64,000 nucleotides of DNA from Promethearchaeota archaeon (GTDB taxonomy: Archaea > Asgardarchaeota > Thorarchaeia > Thorarchaeales > Thorarchaeaceae): positions 1 to 64,000 of the forward strand of contig WJMJ01000079.1 in the NCBI GenBank assembly GCA_014728035.1, in the 5' to 3' direction. Made by a program: the position numbers and the translations under genes. The notes beneath the pieces were generated by a model. It searched no databases, was not told the DNA's origin, and worked only from the letters and a program-made list of their open reading frames with translations. Every line of letters starts with the position of its first letter. The stretch's first letter is position 1. This document shows, one piece after another, positions 2,597 through 15,752 of this stretch.

Positions 2597-2807
2597 TTTA
2601 CGGCACCTATACTTACCAACATGGCTTTTTTACTTATAAAGCAATGAATTATTACGCGCAAATACCTAATCGCACGGGAAATACTAAATAAGATAGCTAT
2701 TCAATCTTTGATTGCAATACTATATGTTGCGCATTATACAAAAAACTCTGGAACTATAAACACTAGTCTAGATATATACTTGCTACCCATAATTGGAGTG
2801 TAAAACA

Positions 2808-4727
2808 TTGAGCGGATCAGGCGATATCAAACAGGGAACCATTGCCAAATTTATGAGAAAAAGGACTCAGTTAGTAGGTTTTGAAACGGGTCTAAACAAA
2901 CATACACAGTATGCAATTGAGTTTTTGGATAATGCAATTGATGCATTAGAGAGTTGGTGGTGGAAAACCAAGAAGAAACCGCGATTACCTGACCAACTAG
3001 ATGAGAAATACATAGAAGAGATTCGCGAAAAAATAAAGGATGATGTATATGATTCTATTTCTCTAAGTAAGAAATTAGAGAAAAAAGTTCGTGCGGGAAA
3101 ACCTGTTGATATACCCGTTAGGAAAAAAGAATCCCTTGACGATAGAGTAACTAGATTTAGGAAATTCCTTGTACCTTTTAGAGGATTGATAAATCGACGT
3201 GAACCCCTTGTGGTGATGCAACTTACTGAAGTTTTCATGCCTGACCTTGTTCCACTTGATGACGAAGAAGGTTTCAAGGTATACGAATTTACTTGCTTTG
3301 ATAATGGGGTAGGAATGGTTCCTTCTGATCTCGAAAAATTTGGTATATATCTTGCATCAAGCAAATCTGAGAAACTCCGTCAGACACGTGGTAGTCAGGG
3401 ATTTGGTTCACCATCTGCTTTTAGTGATGCTCAGAATACAACAGGAAAACCGATTTTCACAATTTCACAAAGATTTACCGCTAAGAAAGCAACTGTAGCT
3501 GACTTTTACACTACTACCTCTAACACAAAGGATTACGTGGCCGGACCTATTCAAATGGAATTGCCGTTTAAACATGGGACGTATATTCGTTTGAATTATC
3601 TGAATATCCAATATCGGAGAGGTTATGCAGATACATACGCCGAGATGGCATCATTGTTGAACTCACATGTTACAATTGTCTTCATTGATCCTTATGGCGA
3701 TGTGTACATCTATCCTCGTAGAGTCAACAAATTCCCTGAAGAACCAAAATATGCACAACCACATCCTGCAAGCATTCGAATAGGAGAATTTCAAGATTTA
3801 CTGCGAGAAACAACTGAAGATTCCTTGTACGGTTTTCTCACTCGTGCATTTACCAGACTGAGTGCTGCGAAAGCAAAATCGATTATCAAGGCAACAAATA
3901 AGGAGTTACGAAAACGACATAAAGATACAATATCTACCCGTACGCCAACAGAATCGCTGTCAAAACTTGAGGTCGAACTACTTTACAAGAATTTCTCAAG
4001 TGAAGATTATATTGCGCCTCCAACAGACACGGTTGTTCCTGTAGGTGAAGAGGTCTTTGAACAGACAATTCAGATGGCCTATAATCCTGAATTTGTTTGT
4101 GCTGTTACACGAAAACCAACATCTGGAAAAGGCCTTTCGTTTGCGGTTGAAGTTTGTATTGCCTATGGGGGCGATATCAAACCTGCGACTTCTGCTACAA
4201 TGGTCCTGTGGCGATTTGTAAACAGAGTACCAAAATTACGTGATAATAGTGATTGTGCTACTTGGAAAGCTTCGGCAATGGTTAATTGGCGAAATTACAA
4301 AGTGAAGACTTTTGATAATGGAATACCTCGTGGTCCAATAATGGTATTCATTCACGTATGTGGTGCCTATGTGCATGTTATGTTTAAAGGACAAAGCAAA
4401 CAAGCTTTGGCTGAAGATGAGGTACTCCTAAAAGAAATTAAATTAGCTTTGGAACAAGCTGGTAGAAAGTTCCGTCGGTTTATTACAAAACGAGAACGCG
4501 CTAAACGAAAAGCAAAACGGGCTGGAGTTCTTTCAATGTATGCTGACCAGTTTGCTGAAAGCTTAGTGTCCATTGTGAATGCAGCTGATCCAAAATCGAA
4601 ATATGATGCTGAGGTTGTGGCTAGTAGACTTAGAAGTTCAATTGCTGGGTATGATAGTCATCCTGAAGATGAAGAGGATGAAGAAGAGGAAGAAGAAAAA
4701 GAGCTTGTTGGAGATGATTCTGATTAG
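2808..4727 (+). CDS. top6B: DNA topoisomerase VI subunit B (GHKL ATPase), with an insertion and an acidic tail
   Basis: GHKL motifs EFLDNAIDA, DNGVG and TRGSQGFG, then PHP, an H2TH region and RFVNRVP. Lies directly upstream of top6A. The start may be TTG 2793 or TTG 2808. Confidence 0.9.
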   Translation: MSGSGDIKQGTIAKFMRKRTQLVGFETGLNKHTQYAIEFLDNAIDALESWWWKTKKKPRLPDQLDEKYIEEIREKIKDDVYDSISLSKKLEKKVRAGKPVDIPVRKKESLDDRVTRFRKFLVPFRGLINRREPLVVMQLTEVFMPDLVPLDDEEGFKVYEFTCFDNGVGMVPSDLEKFGIYLASSKSEKLRQTRGSQGFGSPSAFSDAQNTTGKPIFTISQRFTAKKATVADFYTTTSNTKDYVAGPIQMELPFKHGTYIRLNYLNIQYRRGYADTYAEMASLLNSHVTIVFIDPYGDVYIYPRRVNKFPEEPKYAQPHPASIRIGEFQDLLRETTEDSLYGFLTRAFTRLSAAKAKSIIKATNKELRKRHKDTISTRTPTESLSKLEVELLYKNFSSEDYIAPPTDTVVPVGEEVFEQTIQMAYNPEFVCAVTRKPTSGKGLSFAVEVCIAYGGDIKPATSATMVLWRFVNRVPKLRDNSDCATWKASAMVNWRNYKVKTFDNGIPRGPIMVFIHVCGAYVHVMFKGQSKQALAEDEVLLKEIKLALEQAGRKFRRFITKRERAKRKAKRAGVLSMYADQFAESLVSIVNAADPKSKYDAEVVASRLRSSIAGYDSHPEDEEDEEEEEEKELVGDDSD

Positions 4728-4741
4728 GAGGCTAGCAAATA

Positions 4742-7282
4742 ATGGCCAGGAAACGGGAATCAACAACTATTCAATCAACGCTTGGCGACTTGGTAGAGGC
4801 CGAGTCTAAAACCATTTCAAAGAAGGGGAAAAAAACGACAAAACGAAAGAAATCAACAAGATCAACGAAATCCTCATCCAAGCTTGACATGAAGGACTTG
4901 CCAGGAGTCGGAGCTAAGACCAGAGATAGCTTGATCGAAGCTGGATTCAAGACAGTGGAGAAGATAGCTAAATCTAAACCTACTGCAATTTCCAAGAAGG
5001 TCGATGGGATTGGTGAATCCACTGCTGAAACAATTGTTGAAGCTGCGAAAAAGATGGTACAAGCTAGCAAGCCAAAGAAATCTCGGAAGAAGAAATCAAC
5101 AGAATCCTCATCTAAGCTTGATATGAAGGAGTTACCAGGAGTCGGAGCTAAGACCAGAGATAGCTTGATTGAAGCTGGATTTGAAACGGTTGAGAAGATA
5201 GCAAAAACAAAACCTACTGCAATCTCCAAGAAGGTCGATGGGGTTGGTGAATCCACTGCTGAAACAATTGTTGAAGCTGCAAAAAAGATGGTAAAAGCAA
5301 GTACACCAAAGAAGACACGAAAGAAGAGCAAACCTACGAAGAGAACACCTTCTGCAGAAGAAGTATCAATTGGATTGGACGAGTTACCTGGTATCGGACC
5401 AAGCACGAAGGAGAAACTTATCGCAGCTGGTTATGACTCTCTATCTAAAATTGCATCTGCAAAACCGGCTACACTTGCCAAAGAAGTAGATGGTGTTGGG
5501 AAGAAGACTGCAAAAGATGCAATTGGTGAAGCTAAGAAACTCACAAAAAAGAAGCAACCAAAGACTCGTAAAAAGAAACCTAAACCTACTACTGTATCCG
5601 GTGATGAGCTTCGTTTGAAAGATTTACCGGGTATTGGAAAGAAAACAGCTGAAAAAATGGAAGAAGCTGGTTATGATTCAGTAGCACGGGTTGCTCGTTC
5701 AACTCCTGATTCAATTGCTAAAAGAGTCAGTGGGATAAGCACATCGAAAGCTAGTGAAATTATTGGTGTTGCAAAAGAGATGGTCAAAGCACAACAGATA
5801 CGAGAAATTGATAGGCCGGATATTACTGAGAAAGAAGAAATATCAGAATCTGAAGATACTGAACCAGCTAAGAAGGAAGAGAAGAAGAAACCAAAGTCAC
5901 AGAAAACTAAGAAAACCACGAAGACAAAGAAGACAAAAGAAAAAGAGAGTGATAAATCCAAAGTGACACCAAAAAAGAAGACTAAGAAGCGATCTAGAAA
6001 GAAAAAGAAGACTACTAAAACTCCACAACAAATTCTAGAAGAAAAAAGAGCGAAAATTGTCAAGAAGAAATCTGGATTACCCGTCCCGAAAACCATTATT
6101 GCCCTTACAAAAGAAATGAAGGCGAAATGGGACGCTGCCGATGCTCGTGAAGCGGCATATCAGGCTGGAGAATTATCTGAAGAAGAAATGAATGAAATTG
6201 AAGAAACCATAGAAGTTCTAGATTTAACTCGTAACGAAACCAAGGATAAAGTAGTTGATGTAGCTAGAGAGATACTCCAAGAAACTATGGTGACCGGCCG
6301 TCCTGCTTTTGAAATTCCTAAGAGGTCTTCTAGCAATATTGTATGGGATGAAATTCGAGATTTGCTTTTGTTAGGTATGGATACAGTTTCGAGACCATAT
6401 CATTCTCTTGGAAGTGTAGTGGATGCTACACGTACTGCAAGAGTGATGGAAATCATCTATCAACTGCTTGAATCGAATTTGCATGCCACAAAACGTGAGG
6501 TTTTCTATAGTGACGTAAATCTCTTCCGCGACCAGAAATATAGTGACCGCATACTTGAGGATGTTGCATCAATGTTGCATACTACTCGTGATAGTATCCA
6601 TGTTGTAGCATCTGCTAGAGGTTCTGCAATGGGTCGTGTTGTAATTCGAGATGGAGGTGACCGTATCGACCTTACTAAGATGGGTACGGGTGGTTGGGCA
6701 ATCACACCATTTCTAGACCAGGTGGAAATTATCGAAAGCGATGCTGAATACATTCTTCTTTCAGAGAAGGACGCAGCTGTAATGCGTCTTGCAGAAGCTA
6801 AATACTGGAATCGAGAACCATGTATTGTTCTTACTGGGAAGGGTTCAGGAGATATAGCAACAAGAGCCTTTCTTAAGAAACTGGTTAAGGAACTTGAAAT
6901 TCCTGCTTTTGCGTTAGTAGACTCGGATCCGTATGGGCATTATATTTACTCTGTATTTCTGCGAGGAAGCAAACGACTGAGTTACGAATCGCCATTTATT
7001 GCCACACCAGAGCTAAAATTACTTGGTGTACTCTCTAGAGATCTTGATGAATACGATATTCCAAAAGCGGTTCGAATACCAATGGAGCAGACTGACATTA
7101 AACGAGTCAAGGATATGATTGATGAACCATTTGTAAAGGCGAACAAAGAATGGGTTAAAGACCTGAAACTGATGCTTAAAATTAAAGAAAAGGCAGAAAT
7201 ACAAGCTTTTGCAAGCCACTCATTCAGCTTTCTAACAGATGAATATATCCCAACAAAACTAGAAACTGGGGACTGGATTTAG
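4742..7282 (+). CDS. top6A: DNA topoisomerase VI subunit A (Spo11 family) with a long N-terminal extension of four HhH domains
   Basis: The C-terminal ~360 aa contain TKREVFY (catalytic Tyr codon 6506-6508), Toprim SEKDA and DSDPYG, and KAEIQA. The N-terminal part has four LPG(V/I)G HhH units. Confidence 0.92.
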   Translation: MARKRESTTIQSTLGDLVEAESKTISKKGKKTTKRKKSTRSTKSSSKLDMKDLPGVGAKTRDSLIEAGFKTVEKIAKSKPTAISKKVDGIGESTAETIVEAAKKMVQASKPKKSRKKKSTESSSKLDMKELPGVGAKTRDSLIEAGFETVEKIAKTKPTAISKKVDGVGESTAETIVEAAKKMVKASTPKKTRKKSKPTKRTPSAEEVSIGLDELPGIGPSTKEKLIAAGYDSLSKIASAKPATLAKEVDGVGKKTAKDAIGEAKKLTKKKQPKTRKKKPKPTTVSGDELRLKDLPGIGKKTAEKMEEAGYDSVARVARSTPDSIAKRVSGISTSKASEIIGVAKEMVKAQQIREIDRPDITEKEEISESEDTEPAKKEEKKKPKSQKTKKTTKTKKTKEKESDKSKVTPKKKTKKRSRKKKKTTKTPQQILEEKRAKIVKKKSGLPVPKTIIALTKEMKAKWDAADAREAAYQAGELSEEEMNEIEETIEVLDLTRNETKDKVVDVAREILQETMVTGRPAFEIPKRSSSNIVWDEIRDLLLLGMDTVSRPYHSLGSVVDATRTARVMEIIYQLLESNLHATKREVFYSDVNLFRDQKYSDRILEDVASMLHTTRDSIHVVASARGSAMGRVVIRDGGDRIDLTKMGTGGWAITPFLDQVEIIESDAEYILLSEKDAAVMRLAEAKYWNREPCIVLTGKGSGDIATRAFLKKLVKELEIPAFALVDSDPYGHYIYSVFLRGSKRLSYESPFIATPELKLLGVLSRDLDEYDIPKAVRIPMEQTDIKRVKDMIDEPFVKANKEWVKDLKLMLKIKEKAEIQAFASHSFSFLTDEYIPTKLETGDWI
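4869..5293 (+). repeat. Intragenic tandem duplication (~190-nt unit, 234-nt period) encoding HhH domains 1 and 2
   Basis: 4869-5059 and 5103-5293 are near-identical. Both contain ccaggagtcggagctaagaccagagatagcttgat and ggtgaatccactgctgaaacaattgttgaagctgc. Confidence 0.95.
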
Positions 7283-7305
7283 AACCAGTCCAATTTTCTT
7301 TTTTT
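7270..7305 (+). terminator. Hairpin plus T-tract at the end of top6A
   Basis: ggactgg (7270-7276) pairs with ccagtcc (7285-7291), followed by ttttctttttt. Confidence 0.55.
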
Positions 7306-7398
7306 ATACTCTATCTATTGCAGGCAATAATTTCCTATTGAGATACTATGATAAGGAATGGTGATATTGTTAAACTATTGTGAAATGAGGTTGGATAT

Positions 7399-8319
7399 AT
7401 GCCTGTTAAAGATTTGGATAATCTTGAAGTTATTGATGCGCATGCACACTTTTTTACACACTCTATGCTAAAAGAATGGTTTTCAGATCCGGAAAATCTT
7501 GAGCGTATGAAGGCTCGTGTTAAATACCAAACTGATGTAGGTACTTTTGAGTTTCCTGAAGAACCGTGGGATACTGGAAAAATGTGGATTGATGAAATGG
7601 ATAAATACGGCATATCCGCCATGGGAATGATGATTAGCCCTCAAGCATGGGATGAATTCAATGAAGCAAGGAACCGATTCCCAGGACGATTTCTGGGTTA
7701 TGCTCACGTTGATCCTGAAGATAATCCTGTTGAAACCGTGAAACGAGCTGGAAGAGATGGATTTCAAGGAATCAAACTTTATCCTAGTTCTGGTAGTCAT
7801 CATGTCTATGATAAGCTGTTATTCTATCCAATTTATGAAGAAGCTAGGAAACATAATCTCCTAGTAGTTATCCATTTTGGAATTACCATCGGGAATGAGG
7901 CAAATCTTCGGTATGGAAATCCTCTAGACATCCAGAAGCCTGCACTGGATTTTCCAGAGCTAAACTTCATGATTGCACATTTTGGTGCTGGTTTCTTTCG
8001 TGAAACACTGATGTTAATGTATCAAACTGAAAATGTAGTCATGGATAGTAGTGGTAGCAATAGCTGGATGAAATACCTACCTTACGATCTCTCAATACAG
8101 AAAATATTTGAAAAAGCTCTTCGGGCGGGAGCTGCTTGTAGAGTAATATTTGGAACAGATTCCTCATTCTTTCCAAGAGGATTCAGATACAATATATTAG
8201 AAGAACAATACAAGGCAGTTAAATCCCTCTGTCCACAATTATGTTATTCGGAGGATGATGTTTCACTTATATTCAAAGAAAATATCCTTCGACTTACAGA
8301 TTTCGAGCTAGCAAAATAG
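7399..8319 (+). CDS. Amidohydrolase family protein (Amidohydro_2 TIM barrel)
   Basis: Motifs IDAHAH, GIKLYP, IHFG, IAHFG and FGTDS. Confidence 0.88.
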   Translation: MPVKDLDNLEVIDAHAHFFTHSMLKEWFSDPENLERMKARVKYQTDVGTFEFPEEPWDTGKMWIDEMDKYGISAMGMMISPQAWDEFNEARNRFPGRFLGYAHVDPEDNPVETVKRAGRDGFQGIKLYPSSGSHHVYDKLLFYPIYEEARKHNLLVVIHFGITIGNEANLRYGNPLDIQKPALDFPELNFMIAHFGAGFFRETLMLMYQTENVVMDSSGSNSWMKYLPYDLSIQKIFEKALRAGAACRVIFGTDSSFFPRGFRYNILEEQYKAVKSLCPQLCYSEDDVSLIFKENILRLTDFELAK

Positions 8320-9600
8320 CTAAGCTTCCATTATTTTCTTGTCGAGCTTACCGATTCTCTTTTCCTCGCCACCCAGTTTATATTTCTTTGCAGCCTCTTT
8401 ATATTTTTTCAGAGCTGCTCTACTTTCACCTTTCTTAGCAAAATCATCGCCCTCTGATTCAAGTAATTTGCCCCAATCTTTGTAGCTTTCTCGAATTTTC
8501 TCTGCGCATTTGGCTCTCTTTTTGGCATCGGTAGTAAACATGAATATTTCCCGAGCTTTTCTATATTGTATTACCGCCCATTCATATTCATCTGATTTTT
8601 TATGTCTCTCAGCAAGATCATAATGGTCCTGAGCCATCTCACTATATCCTTTATCTATAAGATATCTACATTCTTCTACCATTTTTTCGTTCTCGGCTCT
8701 TTCATAGAGCTTCATAGCTTTTTCAAACGATTCTATTCCAGCTTCGAATTCTCTTTCTTCTAGGAATTTTTCTCCAGCTTCGATTCTAGCTTTTCCCATT
8801 GCTTCGTATACATACGGTGGATAGACAAATTCATCACCAGTTAAAGAAATGCCACAATTTGGACATGAAGGGGTATCAAGCTCTCGCATGGGATCCTCAA
8901 TTTTGACTCTTTCAGGTTTTCCTACTACGACATCGATGAAATCTCTACTTACTCCTCTTCCCTCTGGGAATAGATGTGCAACAGCGTCTCGTGTTTCGTC
9001 CTCTTCACGTTTATCTGTGAATAGATGACTGGGCAATGATTCGGGTGTATCTACTACTTTTGGTGGTTCTACTTCTTTGAATGGCATACCTTCTTTGGGT
9101 TCTGATTCAACAGATTCCCATGTCAAATCCTCTTCTGCATGGTCATATTCTTTTACAACAAAATCTGGAGGTGTGTCAGAAACCTTTGGAGGTTCGATCT
9201 CTTTAAGACCTCCCATTTCTCCTTCCACCTCATCGACTTCCCATTTCAACTCTTCAGCAGAAGCGGGTATGGTAGGTTCGTCCAATGGTTTATCTTCGGG
9301 GAGAACTGGTTCGTCTTCTACCGTTAGCAAGTCCTCTGGAATATCCGGTAGAATTTCTTCAGGTTCTTCTTTTTCTGAAAGCGGTTCAGTATCATCATCT
9401 AAAAGCAATAATGCATCGGCCATTAACTCCTCATCACGCTCATCAAATCCCATTTCGTCAGTTGAGAGGTCGGGTTCACCTTTCTCGTCACTATCATGAG
9501 ATTCAACATCTTCTGGAATTCTTGCACCACATTTTATGCAAAACGTTGATCCTTTTCCTATTTTTTGACCACATTCTGGACACAGTATTGATGAAGGCAT
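8320..9600 (-). CDS. Zinc-ribbon / acidic linker / TPR-like helical repeat protein
   Basis: Likely ATG at 9600 (MPSSILCPECG...FCIKCG), a long D/E-rich region, a further CPNCG, then TPR-like helices (AGIESFEKAMKLYE, AVIQYRKAREIF, ALKKYKEAAKKY). Confidence 0.8.
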   Translation of the reverse strand: MPSSILCPECGQKIGKGSTFCIKCGARIPEDVESHDSDEKGEPDLSTDEMGFDERDEELMADALLLLDDDTEPLSEKEEPEEILPDIPEDLLTVEDEPVLPEDKPLDEPTIPASAEELKWEVDEVEGEMGGLKEIEPPKVSDTPPDFVVKEYDHAEEDLTWESVESEPKEGMPFKEVEPPKVVDTPESLPSHLFTDKREEDETRDAVAHLFPEGRGVSRDFIDVVVGKPERVKIEDPMRELDTPSCPNCGISLTGDEFVYPPYVYEAMGKARIEAGEKFLEEREFEAGIESFEKAMKLYERAENEKMVEECRYLIDKGYSEMAQDHYDLAERHKKSDEYEWAVIQYRKAREIFMFTTDAKKRAKCAEKIRESYKDWGKLLESEGDDFAKKGESRAALKKYKEAAKKYKLGGEEKRIGKLDKKIMEA

Positions 9601-9679
9601 AATATGACCTGCTTCAGTTCTATTTAGAGCTTGAAGGTTCTGTATATGAACAAATTTAGTATAATTACATGAGCTCACT

Positions 9680-10315
9680 TTACAAATGCACAATTGGAAC
9701 ATAAAGAGTTACATATGTGGCTGTTGTGATTATCATTCCTAAAGCTACTCCTCCAATCGCTTGAGGGAGCGAGTGCTGTTTGAGTTTTACCCGCGACCAG
9801 ACTACTAGTATCCAAAGAACAATGACAGGTAAGGCAATTAATCCATAATAGAATATGAGTGCTGTACCAGGACCTCCTACCCCAGCTCCATGAACTGATA
9901 TTTTCGATATTGTATTTGATAGAAGAACACCAGTTGTTACAGTTATGTAGGCTGCTGAAAGAATCCGCATAACATCGCATTGAAAGATTGCGTATACTAC
10001 ATATGATAAAACATAACAAAGTATAGCAAATATGAAAAATCCGTGACGATTTACCCTTTCTGAAACGTCCAAGTCTGTACTACCACGCATTGCTGAAAAG
10101 ATGATTGGGGAAACTGGCAAGATAACCATGAACACTAAGCAAATTATAATACTCCCGCTCGGGTCGAGGATTGGTCCTAATCCTATGGGTGATGTATAAG
10201 CAATAATAATTCCTACATAAAGATTGATTAATGGAGCAGGAGTTAATCTTGAGATTATTCGAGCTGCTTGAATATGTTCTCCTTCTAGACCGATTATTTG
10301 GTCATTATACTGCAT
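9680..10315 (-). CDS. PAP2-like membrane phosphoesterase
   Basis: Multi-TM protein with KISVH and SRVKLKQHS motifs (C2/C3-like). Confidence 0.65.
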   Translation of the reverse strand: MQYNDQIIGLEGEHIQAARIISRLTPAPLINLYVGIIIAYTSPIGLGPILDPSGSIIICLVFMVILPVSPIIFSAMRGSTDLDVSERVNRHGFFIFAILCYVLSYVVYAIFQCDVMRILSAAYITVTTGVLLSNTISKISVHGAGVGGPGTALIFYYGLIALPVIVLWILVVWSRVKLKQHSLPQAIGGVALGMIITTATYVTLYVPIVHL

Positions 10316-10471
10316 ATAATTCTCAATCCTGATTAAAGTGGTGTAGTATCTTATTATTTGACTCTACTATTTGTTTAAAATATCTACATTTCGTAGTAGG
10401 TGTTTGTTACAGCAAACCTTTTTTTATCCTTTCACCAGTGTTCTGAATAGACGGGGTTTACAATAGAACCC

Positions 10472-10798
10472 TTGGGGATGTGCAAAAACATGCCAGCGAT
10501 GCCAAAAAGAGAGATCTTCGAACAGATTATTCAGAATATCACAAGTAAATATCCTGACGTTTATGCTGCTTTATTCATTAGCCCCGAAGGATTCCCAATT
10601 AACAGCTGGGGTTTGTCAATGGAACGAGCTGAAGAAGTATCAGCACTGCTAAGTTCTTTAATTGGAAAAACAAAGGAAATTATTTTCCAGGTTAAAGAAG
10701 GAGCGGACATGCAATTTATTGATGTGCAAACAACTCAAGGGAGAATACGTATTGCTCCCCAACCAGAGTATATTTTGGTAACAATGGCACATGCATAG
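10472..10798 (+). CDS. Roadblock/LC7 domain protein
   Basis: AALFISPEGFPI...VSALLSSL...IDVQTTQGRIRI fits the roadblock pattern. The true start may be a later ATG. Confidence 0.8.
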   Translation: MGMCKNMPAMPKREIFEQIIQNITSKYPDVYAALFISPEGFPINSWGLSMERAEEVSALLSSLIGKTKEIIFQVKEGADMQFIDVQTTQGRIRIAPQPEYILVTMAHA

Positions 10799-10887
10799 AT
10801 TGTATAGAAATGGCATTTCCAATAGCCATCTCCAAACTCCTCAATATTTATAGAGAATCTTCGCATCATTTCTTATGGGGATGATAT

Positions 10888-11817
10888 TTGGTCGATATTG
10901 CCTTCTCTACAGCAGGACTTAGTAAACGATATGGACTTACGACTGCATTAGATGATATTGATACTGAGGCACCATTGCGTTCTGTTGGTCTTCTAGGGCC
11001 TAATGGAGCAGGAAAAACAACTTTAATTCGTATCTTATTAGGAATTATTACCCCCTCATCCGGATCATTCAACGTATTAGGTCTTGATGCAAAGGATTCT
11101 ATGAATGAGATTAGAGACCGAGTCGGTTATTCCCCTGAATTCTCTCCTATGATTCCAGATGTAAGTGCAATGAAATATGTTGCGTTTATGGGTCGTCTTT
11201 CAGGACTTCGTGGAGTTGAGGCTTCACAACGAGCTCATGATACACTTCATTATGTTGGTTTGGGAGAAGAACGATACAGACCTCTGCGTGAATTTAGCAC
11301 AGGTATGATGCAAAAATGCAAACTAGCAGCTGCTCTTGTTCATGATCCTGATTTCATCATTCTCGATGAACCAACTGATGGACTTGATCCTAAGGGGAGA
11401 AAGCAGATGCTCAATCTGATTAAGCGTCTTTACACCGAGGAAGAAAAGAGCATCATGGTTTCATCACACCTTCTTTTTGATGTTGAGAAGGTTTGTGATT
11501 ATGTTTTGGTTTTGGGCCAGGGAAAATTAATATCAGCGGGGAATATTTCCGACCTTTTGTTAGCTGACTCGGAAGTTTTACGAATTCGAGTCAAAGGCGA
11601 CATTAAGCTTTTTGCTGAACACCTTAGATCTAGAAATCTAGAAGTTACAATTGAGAATTCATTTGTCGACATTACTAGAGTGGAAAATGTAGAGATGATT
11701 GTACTTGAAGAGATTCACAAAGATCCTGAGATAAGTATCCGATATATGGGTCGAAAGAGTAAGTCTTTGGAGGATGTTTTTGTATCAATTGTAGATGGGA
11801 GAAGTGATATGGAATGA
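10888..11817 (+). CDS. ABC transporter ATP-binding protein
   Basis: Walker A GPNGAGKTT, signature FSTGM, Walker B ILDEP and H-loop SSH. Confidence 0.93.
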   Translation: MVDIAFSTAGLSKRYGLTTALDDIDTEAPLRSVGLLGPNGAGKTTLIRILLGIITPSSGSFNVLGLDAKDSMNEIRDRVGYSPEFSPMIPDVSAMKYVAFMGRLSGLRGVEASQRAHDTLHYVGLGEERYRPLREFSTGMMQKCKLAAALVHDPDFIILDEPTDGLDPKGRKQMLNLIKRLYTEEEKSIMVSSHLLFDVEKVCDYVLVLGQGKLISAGNISDLLLADSEVLRIRVKGDIKLFAEHLRSRNLEVTIENSFVDITRVENVEMIVLEEIHKDPEISIRYMGRKSKSLEDVFVSIVDGRSDME

Positions 11818-12803
11818 CTCAAGATGACCATGGCGAAGAAACTTATGTTCGCAAATTCGGATTCAGACGCTTTTCTGGAATTAGGCAGAACCGAATTTAC
11901 AGGGTATTTTCTGTATCATGGTTCAATCTGATTGAAGCCATTAAGCGTTCGGGTTTTACCAAAATGCTATTGATTTTCATGTTTTTCTCATTACTCATTC
12001 AAGATGTTATACTCATTCTATTCAGTTCATTTCTTCCTTTCGGACTATTTGGAGAACTGACTATTGAAGAATTGTTTCGTGGTGGTTACATCGATTCGGT
12101 TTTAGGGATGGTTTCGTTGACCAATCGAGTTACAAGTCCATTGACAAGTGCCCTTGGCTTCTTTACCTCTCTTACCACTGTGACAACTAGCTTCATCTGG
12201 TTACTTCTTCTTGCTCAGATTGGAGGTGGCTTAATTGCTGATGACCGGTTGTATATGACAACCGAGATGTATTTGTCAAGGATTTCAAGATTAGAATATA
12301 TTATTGGGAAATTAGGTAGTTTAGTAATTTTTTCGGCTTTGATTGTAGTGTTACCAGCTTTAATTCAATTCTTTTTGTTAGGAGGTGGATTAGGACTCAA
12401 TTTACTCCCTCACTTGGACCTGCTAGGTTGGGCTTTAGGATTTACAATCAGTGCAGCTATTTTTCTAAGCTTATTCGTTCTTTCTATATCAAGTCTTACG
12501 ACGAGAAGAAACTTTGCTAGTCTAGCCACTTTTATCTTCACCCTATCAATGTCGATTCTTCCCACTGCATTAGGTGGTGCCATTTCTACAACCTCGGTAT
12601 TCTTAGCTTTGGATTTCGTCGGGTGTCTTGCAATTCTATCTCTTGTTGTCCTTGGATTTGATTCTGTATTGGTAAATAATAGAACTATTGCACTTTTTGA
12701 TGGAAATGGATTTGAAGCAATTTTAGCAGTAATTAGTATATCTTTGGTTATTTGTGTTAGTCTACTGATTATTATCAACTTCTTGTTCAGGGAGGATAAC
12801 TGA
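11814..12803 (+). CDS. ABC-2 type permease
   Basis: Multi-TM with GGLIADD...YLSR...EYIIGK. ATGA overlap with the upstream ATPase. Confidence 0.85.
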   Translation: MTQDDHGEETYVRKFGFRRFSGIRQNRIYRVFSVSWFNLIEAIKRSGFTKMLLIFMFFSLLIQDVILILFSSFLPFGLFGELTIEELFRGGYIDSVLGMVSLTNRVTSPLTSALGFFTSLTTVTTSFIWLLLLAQIGGGLIADDRLYMTTEMYLSRISRLEYIIGKLGSLVIFSALIVVLPALIQFFLLGGGLGLNLLPHLDLLGWALGFTISAAIFLSLFVLSISSLTTRRNFASLATFIFTLSMSILPTALGGAISTTSVFLALDFVGCLAILSLVVLGFDSVLVNNRTIALFDGNGFEAILAVISISLVICVSLLIIINFLFREDN

Positions 12804-13747
12804 TGAATGTAATAGAACTTGAAGATGTTTCAAAAGCTTACGGTGAGATAGTCGCTATTAGTAGGTTTACTATGAGGGTAAAATCTGGCTCTATTACTGG
12901 CTTTGTGGGACCCAACGGTGCAGGGAAGTCCACAACGATTCGAATCATAACCGGATTAGCGCGACCAGACGAAGGTACGATAAGAATCTTTGGAGAGGAT
13001 CCATATGATAATCCTGGTGTGAAATCGCGTATTGGTTTTGTTTCAGAACATGATGACCTCTATCCTTGGGCTAGAGTTAAAGAATCTGTTAGTCTTCTAG
13101 CTCGCTTGTCACAACCTTTGAAAAGGGAGATTTCTTCAGACATTGATTGGGCAATATCTGCCGTTGGAATGCACAAATTCAAAGAACGTCCCGTTTCACA
13201 GCTATCAAAAGGAATGCGGCAAAGAGTAAAAATTGCAGCTGCCCTAGTCCATCATCCAGAACTCTTAGTTCTTGATGAACCAATGGGTGGTCTTGATCCT
13301 TTGGGTAGGAAAACTGTAATGGATTTACTTAAACGTTTGAACAAAGACGAGCAAGTTTCTATTCTGGTTTCAAGCCATGTTCTTGAGGAGCTAGAATATT
13401 TTGTGAATCGTCTAACTTTAATTCATAGAGGACAAGCTTTAGCAGAAGGAGCACCCGATCAGATTCGTAGTTTTATTTTCTCTTACCCTCATGAAATTAC
13501 GTATTCAGCTAAGGAATCAGATATGAGTGAGATAAATAGTCAAGTTATTACGAAATCTGACATAGTTAGAACGATGTCGTTGAACCGATTAGAAGATGAT
13601 ATAATGGAGTGCAAAGTTATCACATCAAATCCAGAAGAATTCTATGATGAATTAATTAGAATCGCTGTTGAGTTGAAAGCTCCAATACTGTCAATTGATA
13701 CTGAATCCGAAAGTGTAGAAAAGCTCTTTGAATTTCTTGTTTCTTAG
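12803..13747 (+). CDS. ABC transporter ATP-binding protein
   Basis: Motifs GPNGAGKST, LSKGM, VLDEP and SSH. Confidence 0.93.
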   Translation: MNVIELEDVSKAYGEIVAISRFTMRVKSGSITGFVGPNGAGKSTTIRIITGLARPDEGTIRIFGEDPYDNPGVKSRIGFVSEHDDLYPWARVKESVSLLARLSQPLKREISSDIDWAISAVGMHKFKERPVSQLSKGMRQRVKIAAALVHHPELLVLDEPMGGLDPLGRKTVMDLLKRLNKDEQVSILVSSHVLEELEYFVNRLTLIHRGQALAEGAPDQIRSFIFSYPHEITYSAKESDMSEINSQVITKSDIVRTMSLNRLEDDIMECKVITSNPEEFYDELIRIAVELKAPILSIDTESESVEKLFEFLVS

Positions 13748-13760
13748 TGGAGGAAGAATA

Positions 13761-14582
13761 TTGGTCGAATCAGATACAAGTTTTATAGAAAACCAGTCTT
13801 TCATTGATAAGGGGAAACAAGTCATTGCTAGGGGATTCATTTTGGTTTTCACATTCATGAAGAGCTTTATGAAAGATCGGAAGAGTCAAATTCTTATCTT
13901 ATTGGGAATCGCACCATCGATTCTTCTAATATTAATGGATATCAGTTTTCCTAGTTATTACGTTGCTGCTATTTTCTTTACAGATACTGTACAAACATTG
14001 TATATCGCGCTACTATTACCGTTGTTCGGATTATTATTGGGGACAGCAGCCTTATCGGAAGAGATTGAATCTCATACGATTGTTCAACTGGTAAGCCGCC
14101 CTATTCGCAGATTTGAACTAGTCTTCTGGAGATATTTTTCTACCGTCATCGCAAGTTTGCTAGTTGCAATTATTTCCCTAAGTTTCCTTTTCGTTGCTAC
14201 TGGTAGTTGTGTCCTTCCAGATGGAAGTTTACATAGTAACTGGGGATTACATTTACTTCCAGGAAGCTGGTTGCTTTCATTGATATGTAGTGCTGTTTAT
14301 TGTGCAATCTTCTCTTTGTTGGGAGTCGCTCTAGAAAAGCCTCTATTTTGGGGGGTAGTTATAACATTATACGAACAATTGTTGGGTGTTATTTTTTCAT
14401 TCTTTGGAGGGGGTTTATTTTCACTCAGTGGACACATTTTTCTCGTAGGAGAAGATTTGCTTCCTTATGTCTATTCAATCCCTGATTGGTCAGTTGAAGG
14501 ATCTGTTGCTTTGTTGTTGATTATTTCTCTGGTATCATTCATACTATCAGTAATCATCTTTCAGGAAAAGGATTTGTCTTGA
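13761..14582 (+). CDS. ABC-2 type permease
   Basis: Multi-TM with SEEIESHT...SRPIRR. Start placed at TTG 13761 after GGAGG; the ORF track start is 13728. Confidence 0.82.
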   Translation: MVESDTSFIENQSFIDKGKQVIARGFILVFTFMKSFMKDRKSQILILLGIAPSILLILMDISFPSYYVAAIFFTDTVQTLYIALLLPLFGLLLGTAALSEEIESHTIVQLVSRPIRRFELVFWRYFSTVIASLLVAIISLSFLFVATGSCVLPDGSLHSNWGLHLLPGSWLLSLICSAVYCAIFSLLGVALEKPLFWGVVITLYEQLLGVIFSFFGGGLFSLSGHIFLVGEDLLPYVYSIPDWSVEGSVALLLIISLVSFILSVIIFQEKDLS

Positions 14583-14720
14583 TAGTAGCTGGAGATAGAT
14601 AACTATATCATCAAAACACTCGGATTCTTCCTTAGTGTCATTTTTATATCTTTGAATATCACTAAAATATGCCTTAGGCATGGTAAGAAGTGAGCGATAA
14701 TCCATGCAAAGAGGGAGGTC

Positions 14721-15752
14721 TTGAAGATTTCACCGAAAAAAGATGAATCCGACGATGAAGTTGATTATGAGGATTTTGAAGAAGAAGAAGAGGAAGATGA
14801 GGAAGAAGAACTACCAGATTTCGAAATAACTGATTTGCCTGGTGTTGGTCCAGCTATAGGAAAACGCCTTAGTGAAGCAGGATTCAAGACAGTTGAAGCT
14901 GTTGCCGTCGCATCCCCTGGTGAGCTGGCTGCAGCAGGGTCAATTGGAGAAACTACTGCAACTAAAATTATCAAAGCAGCTCGTGAGATGCTCGATATTG
15001 GATTCGAAACTGCAGACCTCCTATTAGATAGACGAAGGAACGCAGGAAGAATTTCTACTGGTGCAAAGTCCCTTGATGACTTATTAGGTGGTGGTATCGA
15101 AACTCAATGCATTACTGAGATGTATGGATCATTTCGATCTGGAAAGACTCAGCTTGCTCATCAATTAGCCCTCAATGTGCAACGTCCTCCAGAAGATGGT
15201 GGATTAGGAGCAACTGCGATTTATGTTGACACTGAAGGTACATTTCGACCTGAACGTCTTGTGGATATGGCTGAAGCTGTTGGTATGGATGTGGCAAAAG
15301 TATTGAAAAATGTAATCTATGCTCGAGCCTATAATTCAGACCATCAGATTTTACTATGTGATCAGGCAATGGAGATGGCTCCCGAAAGAAATGCTAAACT
15401 TCTGGTCGTGGACTCTGTCATGAGCCATTTCCGAGCAGAATATACTGGAAGAGGAACACTTGCTGCTAGACAACAGAAATTGAATAAGCATCTACACCAT
15501 CTGCAAAGAGGTGCAGAAATCAACAATCTTGCAGTATATATTACTAATCAGGTAATGTCCAAACCAGATGCATTCTTTGGAGACCCTACTGCTCCTGTTG
15601 GCGGTCATGTATTAGCACATGTTCCACAGACTCGTTGTTATTTGAGAAAATCAAAAGGCGAACGCAGAATATGTCGTTTAGTTGATTCACCAAATCTCCC
15701 AGAAGGAGAGGCAGTATTCTCAATCCTCAAAGAAGGAATACGTGACGTATAA
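14721..15752 (+). CDS. radA: DNA repair and recombination protein RadA
   Basis: N-terminal HhH domain, GFETA polymerisation motif, Walker [27 protein letters not shown] and GGHVLAH. Confidence 0.97.

Follow-up and report, generated by a model that had tools for sequence, protein, structure and literature searches.

The topoisomerase VI (Topo VI) A subunit encoded near the start of Thorarchaeaceae contig WJMJ01000079.1 (Promethearchaeota archaeon, assembly GCA_014728035.1) carries a long N-terminal arm of four helix-hairpin-helix (HhH) domains fused to a complete type IIB catalytic core. We analyzed this gene, top6A, within the first 64,000 nucleotides of the contig (the window), together with its relatives in the same genome, in other Asgard genomes and in public protein collections. 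The gene encodes the A subunit of a conserved, eukaryote-like Topo VI. Its HhH arm is fixed in one archaeal family, and we found no published description of it. The arm is most economically read as a DNA tether: it probably serves as a flexible, multivalent, sequence-independent one that would keep Topo VI on the chromosome, with DNA binding inferred solely from the domain family.

An earlier reading made from the DNA sequence without database searches (the sequence-only reading) had described a Top6A, or Spo11 homologue, fused to four HhH domains, and domain analysis bore this out. Pfam matched HHH_5 in four stretches of the protein (E = 5.3e-42), TP6A_N at residues 563-621 (E = 4.3e-20) and TOP6A-Spo11_Toprim (PF21180) at residues 670-840 (E = 6.6e-54), and a single reading frame runs uninterrupted across the junction between the HhH domains and the core. 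An AlphaFold2 model of Top6A, based on a 60-sequence alignment (mean predicted local distance difference test [pLDDT] score, 82), contained four five-helix domains, each an (HhH)2 unit, arranged like beads on a string. Their residue ranges are given in Table 1; the segments with a pLDDT of <50 are residues 1-46, 112-124, 189-208, 272-286 and 362-430. The G-h-G motif is kept in seven of the eight hairpins, the exception being the second hairpin of unit 4, which reads GIS. Both strings that the sequence-only reading had quoted are present, that of the units (LPGVGAKTRDS) at nucleotides 4898 and 5132 and that of RadA at nucleotide 14835. Its estimate of about 490 residues ahead of the core was a fair one, as conservation with Thorarchaeota homologues begins at about residues 413-427 and the extra N-terminal helices of the Asgard-type enzyme take up residues 431-500. 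The length that it gave for a canonical Top6A, about 350-400 residues, likewise agrees with the 301-389 residues of the solved archaeal chains.

The arm and the core differ sharply in charge. Residues 1-430 are 23% lysine and carry a net charge of +56 (+16 within residues 393-430), versus -7 for the core, and the arm is positive in all homologues (+13 to +66; median, +40). The tracts between the units are indeed Lys rich, as had been seen, at 30-45% lysine. Their proposed likeness to histone H1, however, comes down to shared composition and was rejected at the motif level: S/TPKK motifs are not enriched (two TPKK; shuffle p = 0.08), 39 of 99 homologues have none, and a Pfam scan of Top6A returned no linker-histone match. 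Units 1 and 2 form a tandem repeat with a 234-nucleotide period and 88% nucleotide identity, with a synonymous divergence (dS) of 0.49 and a ratio of nonsynonymous to synonymous divergence (dN/dS) of 0.10. Judged by these values, they are young tandem duplicates, and a dN/dS of 0.10 between them indicates that each copy is under selection and has thus been kept.

The core itself is intact. Arg585 and Tyr589 (REVFY), Glu675 and Asp727/Asp729 (DSDPYG) are invariant in the 60-sequence alignment. The Top6B gene, which encodes the cognate ATPase subunit, ends 15 nucleotides upstream of the Top6A start, making a two-gene operon on the plus strand. The GHKL match of Top6B was weak (HATPase_c_3, E = 4.4e-4, below the cut-off), and its N-box and G1-box motifs are present. 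Between these two boxes of the GHKL fold lies an insertion of ~80-90 residues, such that the DNAxDA-to-DNGxG spacing is 124 residues versus 33 and 45 in two paralogous Top6B proteins. Since Top6B keeps the ATP-binding motifs and the transducer, the fused enzyme is predicted to be a strand-passage enzyme. The C-terminal tail of Top6B is acidic, with a net charge of -15 over its last 40 residues, and both the insertion and the tail recur in a relative (L051). As pure inference, this tail could conceivably interact with the Top6A arm. In the sister family (L053 1103-3205), the N terminus of Top6B is instead extended by a Lys/Ser/Thr-rich stretch. We dropped a reading of the Top6B N-terminal sequence QGTIAKFM as similar to a PCNA-interacting protein (PIP) box; the segment probably corresponds to the conserved N-terminal strap of Saccharolobus shibatae Top6B.

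When the core was used as the sole query against proteins of 465-1481 residues, 313 matched, and the following figures are from the 120 listed. All were from Thorarchaeota, or from Promethearchaeota, where named; their cores were 83-97% identical, and almost all carried HHH_5. The same fusion is present in >100 independent Thorarchaeota assemblies, some with contigs of up to 3 Mb. A hidden Markov model of the module found two units in 105 of the 120 homologues, three in one, four in six and five in one, while the homologues with no unit or one unit were almost all N-terminally cut fragments. The four-unit proteins include the Top6A of the window and its nearest relative, whose core is 97% identical. 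A 950-residue representative has seven units, bringing the overall range to two to seven, with two the usual number. The survey of lengths and repeat numbers that had been proposed from the sequence thus marks the four units of the present protein as atypical.

Genome by genome, Top6A was found in 70 of 70 genomes of the family. A long Top6A frame (527-954 residues) occurs in 18 of 18 same-family genomes, the 527-residue frame ending at a contig end, and HhH matches fall inside the long frame in 17 of the 18. The orthologue in the sister family has 420 residues, with a basic helical N terminus and no HhH domain. Outside the family, no Top6A with an HhH array was found among the 150 frames listed from 230 other Asgard genomes, none of which exceeds 506 residues; a further 306 matches from that search lie outside the 150 listed. 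Orthologues from other Asgard lineages have 395-506 residues. HHH_5 was also absent from six non-Thorarchaeota Top6A representatives scanned with Pfam, and only two of 1.84 billion representative proteins have the full architecture. A word-indexed search for short array-like proteins gave eight matches (Thorarchaeota fragments, one Hodarchaeota HhH protein and one Theionarchaea RadA) and was uninformative, probably because Lys-rich words swamped the matches.

The sequence-only reading had allowed that the architecture might already be widespread and characterized. It is widespread, in one family, but no description of an HhH-fused Top6A was found among 8.1 million PubMed Central papers and 0.36 million preprints, including papers on Topo VI evolution. 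Databases label the fused protein "helix-hairpin-helix domain-containing protein" or "SPO11," and JGI labels it "meiotic recombination protein SPO11."

Other unusually long Top6A proteins were seen in the same searches. Representatives of 833-950 residues (e.g., P0137, P0140 and P0148) had the core matched in two separated stretches, and the Top6A proteins of this length outside Thorarchaeota are probably intein bearing rather than HhH fusions; P0121 is the one among them that was checked. P0121 has seven HhH units and 56% identity and hence is probably a Thorarchaeota relative. P0123 and P0130 (461 and 470 residues) have an N-terminal extension of ~120 residues with a ubiquitin-family match (E = 2e-4; 21.5 bits versus a cut-off of 25.4). 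A ubiquitin-like domain may accordingly be present at the N terminus of the ~462-489-residue class of Top6A proteins that occurs in several other Asgard families.

Binned from a metagenome and estimated to be 97.9% complete with 8.5% contamination, the genome has three Top6B-Top6A operons. Besides the fused operon, there is a canonical, euryarchaeal-type pair of 503 and 353 residues (contig C25:166216-168781; L004 6216-8781), whose A subunit shares just 29% identity with the fused core, and a divergent pair of 509 and 382 residues on the minus strand of contig C94 (L005 6610-9294), whose A subunit keeps the catalytic Tyr but reads DMS at the site of the Toprim DxD. This loss of DxD in a third Topo VI operon was seen only in the present genome; multiple copies in Thorarchaeia have been published (PMC12680538). 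Long and short Top6A copies are present in 18 of 18 same-family genomes, and a third is present in most. As relatives carry the same operon set, we rejected contamination as the origin of the additional operons. The fused core is the better conserved among Thorarchaeota, at 83-97% versus 61-72% for the short paralogue, as expected of the main enzyme. We found no GyrA/ParC homologue or other type IIA topoisomerase in the genome, and gyrase is reported to be absent from Thorarchaeota (Villain et al., PMC9348778); therefore, type IIB enzymes carry all of the type II activity.

Published trees place the conserved Asgard Top6A as sister to eukaryotic Top6A/Spo11, and a second Asgard copy, plus a third in Thorarchaeia, with those of other archaea (Nat Ecol Evol 2025, PMC12680538). 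The ranking of solved structures agrees with this placement. The best PDB match of the fused core was S. shibatae Top6A (2ZBK, 198 bits), and yeast Spo11 was also reached, while the short paralogue was closest to the Methanosarcina mazei and Methanocaldococcus jannaschii enzymes (208 and 197 bits). The conserved Asgard Top6A that those trees put beside the eukaryotic proteins is the fused copy; the HhH arm goes unmentioned in PMC12680538. The fused core is 41-48% identical to its nearest non-Thorarchaeota representatives. The closest, P0124 and P0125 (428 and 494 residues; 41-45% identity), have eukaryotic-looking N termini that are Arg/Lys rich or Ala/Ser rich and have a C-terminal ...DWI ending in common, features that fit the published sisterhood of the Asgard core with eukaryotic TOP6A.

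Several lines of evidence lead us to favor a tethering role for the arm. First, the closest solved relatives of its units are (HhH)2 domains that contact DNA. In PDB sequence searches, unit 1 best matched an (HhH)2 domain of topoisomerase V (Topo V; E = 1.6e-8), on a par with Pyrococcus furiosus RadA (E = 3.3e-8), with eL32 next. The analogy with the HhH array of Topo V drawn from the sequence was thus an apt one. Second, the arm is strongly basic beside a negatively charged core and is positive in every homologue. Third, the number of units varies from two to seven, and yet the young duplicates are under selection. The recurrence of the fusion throughout the family, the lack of a type IIA topoisomerase in the genome and the high conservation of the fused core also count in favor. 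An A2B2 enzyme would carry two such arms, with eight (HhH)2 domains and a net charge of about +110, which would bind the phosphate backbone of duplex DNA with no sequence preference. A type IIB enzyme that binds DNA weakly could thereby stay tethered to the chromosome and slide along it. The tether would be expected to raise local concentration, residence time, processivity and salt tolerance in relaxation and decatenation, the same solution as that of the Topo V array, reached independently.

Several observations weigh against this reading. Two ribosomal proteins and a membrane protein carry the same module, and a part in DNA processivity is hard to picture there; its function may thus be more general, such as binding to any nucleic acid or localization. 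The sister family and the other Asgard lineages searched do without the arm. Housekeeping decatenation does not have to fall to the fused enzyme, since the genome encodes a canonical Topo VI in a second operon. Finally, an invariant motif at the tip of the arm points to a protein partner as well.

The first of these observations suggests an alternative that we consider unlikely but the strongest of those weighed, namely that the arm is a lineage-wide address tag that would place unrelated proteins on the nucleoid or in a nucleic acid-rich compartment, so that its effect on Topo VI would be on localization and not on catalysis. Lys-flanked (HhH)2 modules occur elsewhere in the genome on eL32 (two units), eS25, Rpo6, three HEAT-repeat-type proteins (with Pfam HEAT matches in two of the three) and a multipass membrane protein for which HHH_5 is the sole Pfam match (C151:30872-31939, C37:131986-132894, C153:13473-14132, C25:122053-122781, C37:64799-66415, C96:18731-20458 and C69:34060-35655). 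These modules are the closest in-genome relatives of the Top6A units. An HhH-like N terminus on Thorarchaeota Rpo6 was noted in a 2026 paper (PMC13257274). Module-like domains number 4-20 per genome in the family versus 0-6 in other Asgard genomes, but these counts come from a profile built on the present genome, which favors close kin. The number of units on eL32 varies too, from two here to four in a public relative (P0129). The HhH-eL32 fusion is old, however, and not specific to the family, as residues 15-63 of Haloarcula marismortui L32e match a unit. Moreover, localization on DNA and tethering to it are hard to distinguish.

The motif at the tip raises the less probable alternative, to which we give little credence, that the arm is mainly a protein-docking device, whose QxTLGxLV tip, by binding PCNA or some other partner, would deliver Topo VI to replication forks; the HhH units would then play a secondary part. 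The pattern [ED]-T-V-Q-[AS]-T-L-G-[ED]-[LV]-[VL], with its Q and L invariant, was found in 100 of 100 full-length homologues, amid surroundings that are disordered and otherwise poorly conserved. Its first six positions resemble the PIP box at the end of FEN1 from the same genome (QSSLTDFF), and the genome also encodes PCNA (L052:1042-1791). The motif is unique in the genome; a second occurrence, on contig C130, lies upstream of a signal peptide and was discarded as fortuitous. It is absent from sister-family Top6A. Against a docking role, the tip departs from the PIP box consensus Qxx[ILM]xx[FYW][FYW]: both of the defining aromatics, at positions 7 and 8, are replaced by Leu/Val, with an aromatic residue in 0 of 100 homologues. 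Nor would docking by the tip explain why the (HhH)2 units have been multiplied and held under purifying selection.

A broader scheme that joins localization and docking is, to our mind, doubtful. A cassette consisting of a Lys-rich tract and a RadA-N-type (HhH)2 domain might have been shuffled onto Topo VI, Rpo6, eL32, eS25 and HEAT scaffolds, where it would hold the transcription, translation and DNA topology machinery on the nucleoid, while the tip, resembling a clamp-docking motif, would recruit Topo VI to replication forks. If true, this would be the first link between a type IIB topoisomerase and replication fork recruitment. Whatever its function, the reuse of the module on ribosomal and RNA polymerase subunits points to an unexplored domain-shuffling habit of this Asgard family.

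The sequence-only reading had been struck by the similarity of the units to the N-terminal domain of RadA and, as Spo11 and Rad51/Dmc1 act in sequence in meiosis, had seen a resonance between the two. The stronger form of this idea, that the units derive from RadA and mimic its N-terminal domain to engage RadA filaments or partners, coupling Spo11-like breakage to recombination, we regard as very improbable. The likeness is real: over 56 columns, unit 1 shares 45% identity with the N-terminal domain of RadA from the same genome, and archaeal RadA N-terminal domains were the best matches of the unit model among solved structures, with template-modeling (TM) scores of 0.79-0.90. (With just 56 residues to work on, a Foldseek search with a single unit returned nothing at E ≤ 0.001, and ranks and TM scores were used instead.) It is not, however, a special likeness. 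In pairwise alignments, the Top6A units scored 115-157 with the eL32, eS25 and HEAT modules and ~108 on average with the Rpo6 module, versus 86-117 (mean, 100) with RadA, so that RadA is not their nearest relative in the genome. The second hairpin of the RadA domain also has a distinct signature and is one residue shorter. In a tree of 70 (HhH)2 domains over 55 columns, with RadA domains from ten further genomes included, the RadA domains clustered apart (support, 91/99), and the Top6A units fell in a polytomy with the eL32, eS25, HEAT and Rpo6 modules; unit 4 grouped with the core-proximal second unit of two-unit homologues (85/80 and 80/93). An approximately unbiased (AU) test did not reject a joint clade of Top6A units and RadA (p = 0.39), 55 columns being too few to decide.

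The genomic setting also gives coupling to RadA little support. Across the order, 2-8 kb separate radA from top6BA, but the armless sister family has the same linkage, and the intervening genes are unrelated and on the opposite strand; the arrangement is thus conserved synteny and not evidence of coupling. In the family, the order (window 4742-15752; L051; L053) is top6B, top6A, (amidohydrolase), Zn-ribbon/TPR (minus strand), membrane protein (minus strand), (ABC transporter) and radA, and it is kept in a shorter form in the sister family. The JGI label "meiotic recombination protein SPO11" suits the coupling idea, but the ATP-binding motifs and transducer of Top6B suggest a strand-passage enzyme, and the eukaryote-like position of the core is common to all Asgard Top6A and not tied to the arm (PMC12680538). 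From these comparisons, it is fair to say that the units are RadA-N-type (HhH)2 domains of a module that is promiscuous in this lineage, with no special tie to RadA evident. With no specific RadA link, the Spo11/Rad51 resonance falls away, and the tempting story of a Spo11 homologue equipped with Rad51-derived domains loses support. A second Rad51/RadA-family paralogue of 362 residues, with a more divergent N-terminal HHH_5, is encoded outside the window (C45:76512-77597).

Finally, we rejected a join of an HhH protein to Top6A by misassembly or gene calling, a conceivable error for a repetitive array in a bin with some contamination but one with next to no chance of being the explanation here, given the uninterrupted frame over the junction, the recurrence of the architecture in >100 independent assemblies and the four units of the nearest relative.

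Table 1. Positions, in the window, of the fused Top6A gene, its parts and two associated genes (aa, amino acids)
Feature	Positions	Strand	Remarks
Top6A gene, whole	4742..7282	+	846 aa + stop; N-terminal arm, then type IIB catalytic core
Tip motif TTIQSTLGDLV (aa 8-18)	4763..4795	+	PIP-box-like (QxxLxxLV), without aromatic pair
(HhH)2 unit 1 (aa 47-111)	4880..5074	+	HHH_5; pLDDT >90
(HhH)2 unit 2 (aa 125-188)	5114..5305	+	HHH_5; pLDDT >90
(HhH)2 unit 3 (aa 209-271)	5366..5554	+	HHH_5; pLDDT >90; unplaced in tree
(HhH)2 unit 4 (aa 287-361), adjoins core	5600..5824	+	HHH_5; pLDDT >90; degenerate second hairpin (GIS)
Long disordered linker (aa 362-430)	5825..6031	+	Acidic patch, then 45% Lys tract; pLDDT <50
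Extra N-terminal helical segment, Asgard/eukaryote-type Top6A	6032..6241	+	Helices 450-474 and 480-485 (AlphaFold2)
Catalytic core	6242..7279	+	5Y-CAP (Arg585, Tyr589), Toprim (Glu675, Asp727, Asp729)
Top6B, cognate ATPase subunit	2793..4727	+	644 aa; Topo-VIb_trans, E = 4.7e-43
RadA, comparator, outside the feature	14721..15752	+	343 aa; Rad51, E = 4.9e-94, and one HHH_5

Compared with other Asgard-type Top6A proteins (PMC12680538; PMC9665070), the present protein has the same 5Y-CAP domain with its catalytic Tyr, the same Toprim Glu and DxD, the same extra N-terminal helix and the same operon pairing with Top6B; what sets it apart is an added arm of ~430 residues that comprises a conserved tip and four (HhH)2 domains. 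Both plant Topo VI and the meiotic nuclease Spo11 descend from archaeal Topo VI. The natural series of two to seven units offers a way to ask how tether valency affects a type IIB enzyme in its processivity, its preference for decatenation and its tolerance of salt.

The array of Topo V comprises about 12 (HhH)2 units. Like the fused Top6A, the Methanopyrus kandleri enzyme (type IC; PDB 5HM5 and 8DF7) is a topoisomerase joined to a tandem (HhH)2 array, and the domain that unit 1 matched lies at its residues 626-682 (TM score, 0.77). Its catalysis is of type IC, in contrast to type IIB, and the present Top6A has no type IC domain. The Topo V array is C terminal and tightly packed, whereas that of Top6A is N terminal and spaced by Lys-rich disordered linkers. 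The two are a case of convergence, not of homologous architecture.

The N-terminal (HhH)2 domain of RadA/Rad51 (PDB 1PZN, 1T4G and 2BKE) shares the five-helix fold and the HHH_5 match with the Top6A units (root-mean-square deviation, 0.8-1.6 Å; 34-49% identity) but occurs as a single copy on an ATPase core. Archaeal eL32 with an N-terminal HhH domain (H. marismortui L32e, PDB 1JJ2 chain X; 9L94) likewise has the (HhH)2 module on an otherwise unrelated, nucleic acid-associated protein, the host in that case being ribosomal. The eL32 of the present genome has Lys-rich linkers beside its two units, which are among the closest relatives of those of Top6A.

Other type II topoisomerases have DNA-binding accessories, such as the Lys-rich C-terminal region in eukaryotic Topo II and, in plants, the Topo VI partners BIN4/MID and RHL1. 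They are related to the arm by functional analogy only, as basic, flexible, DNA-binding elements with no sequence relation to it. BIN4 is mentioned in PMC9665070. The plant accessories are separate proteins, whereas the Top6A arm is fused in cis, and this arm of variable copy number suggests that Topo VI can gain DNA affinity in cis, as Topo V has with its array and the eukaryotic type II enzymes have with their tails and partners.

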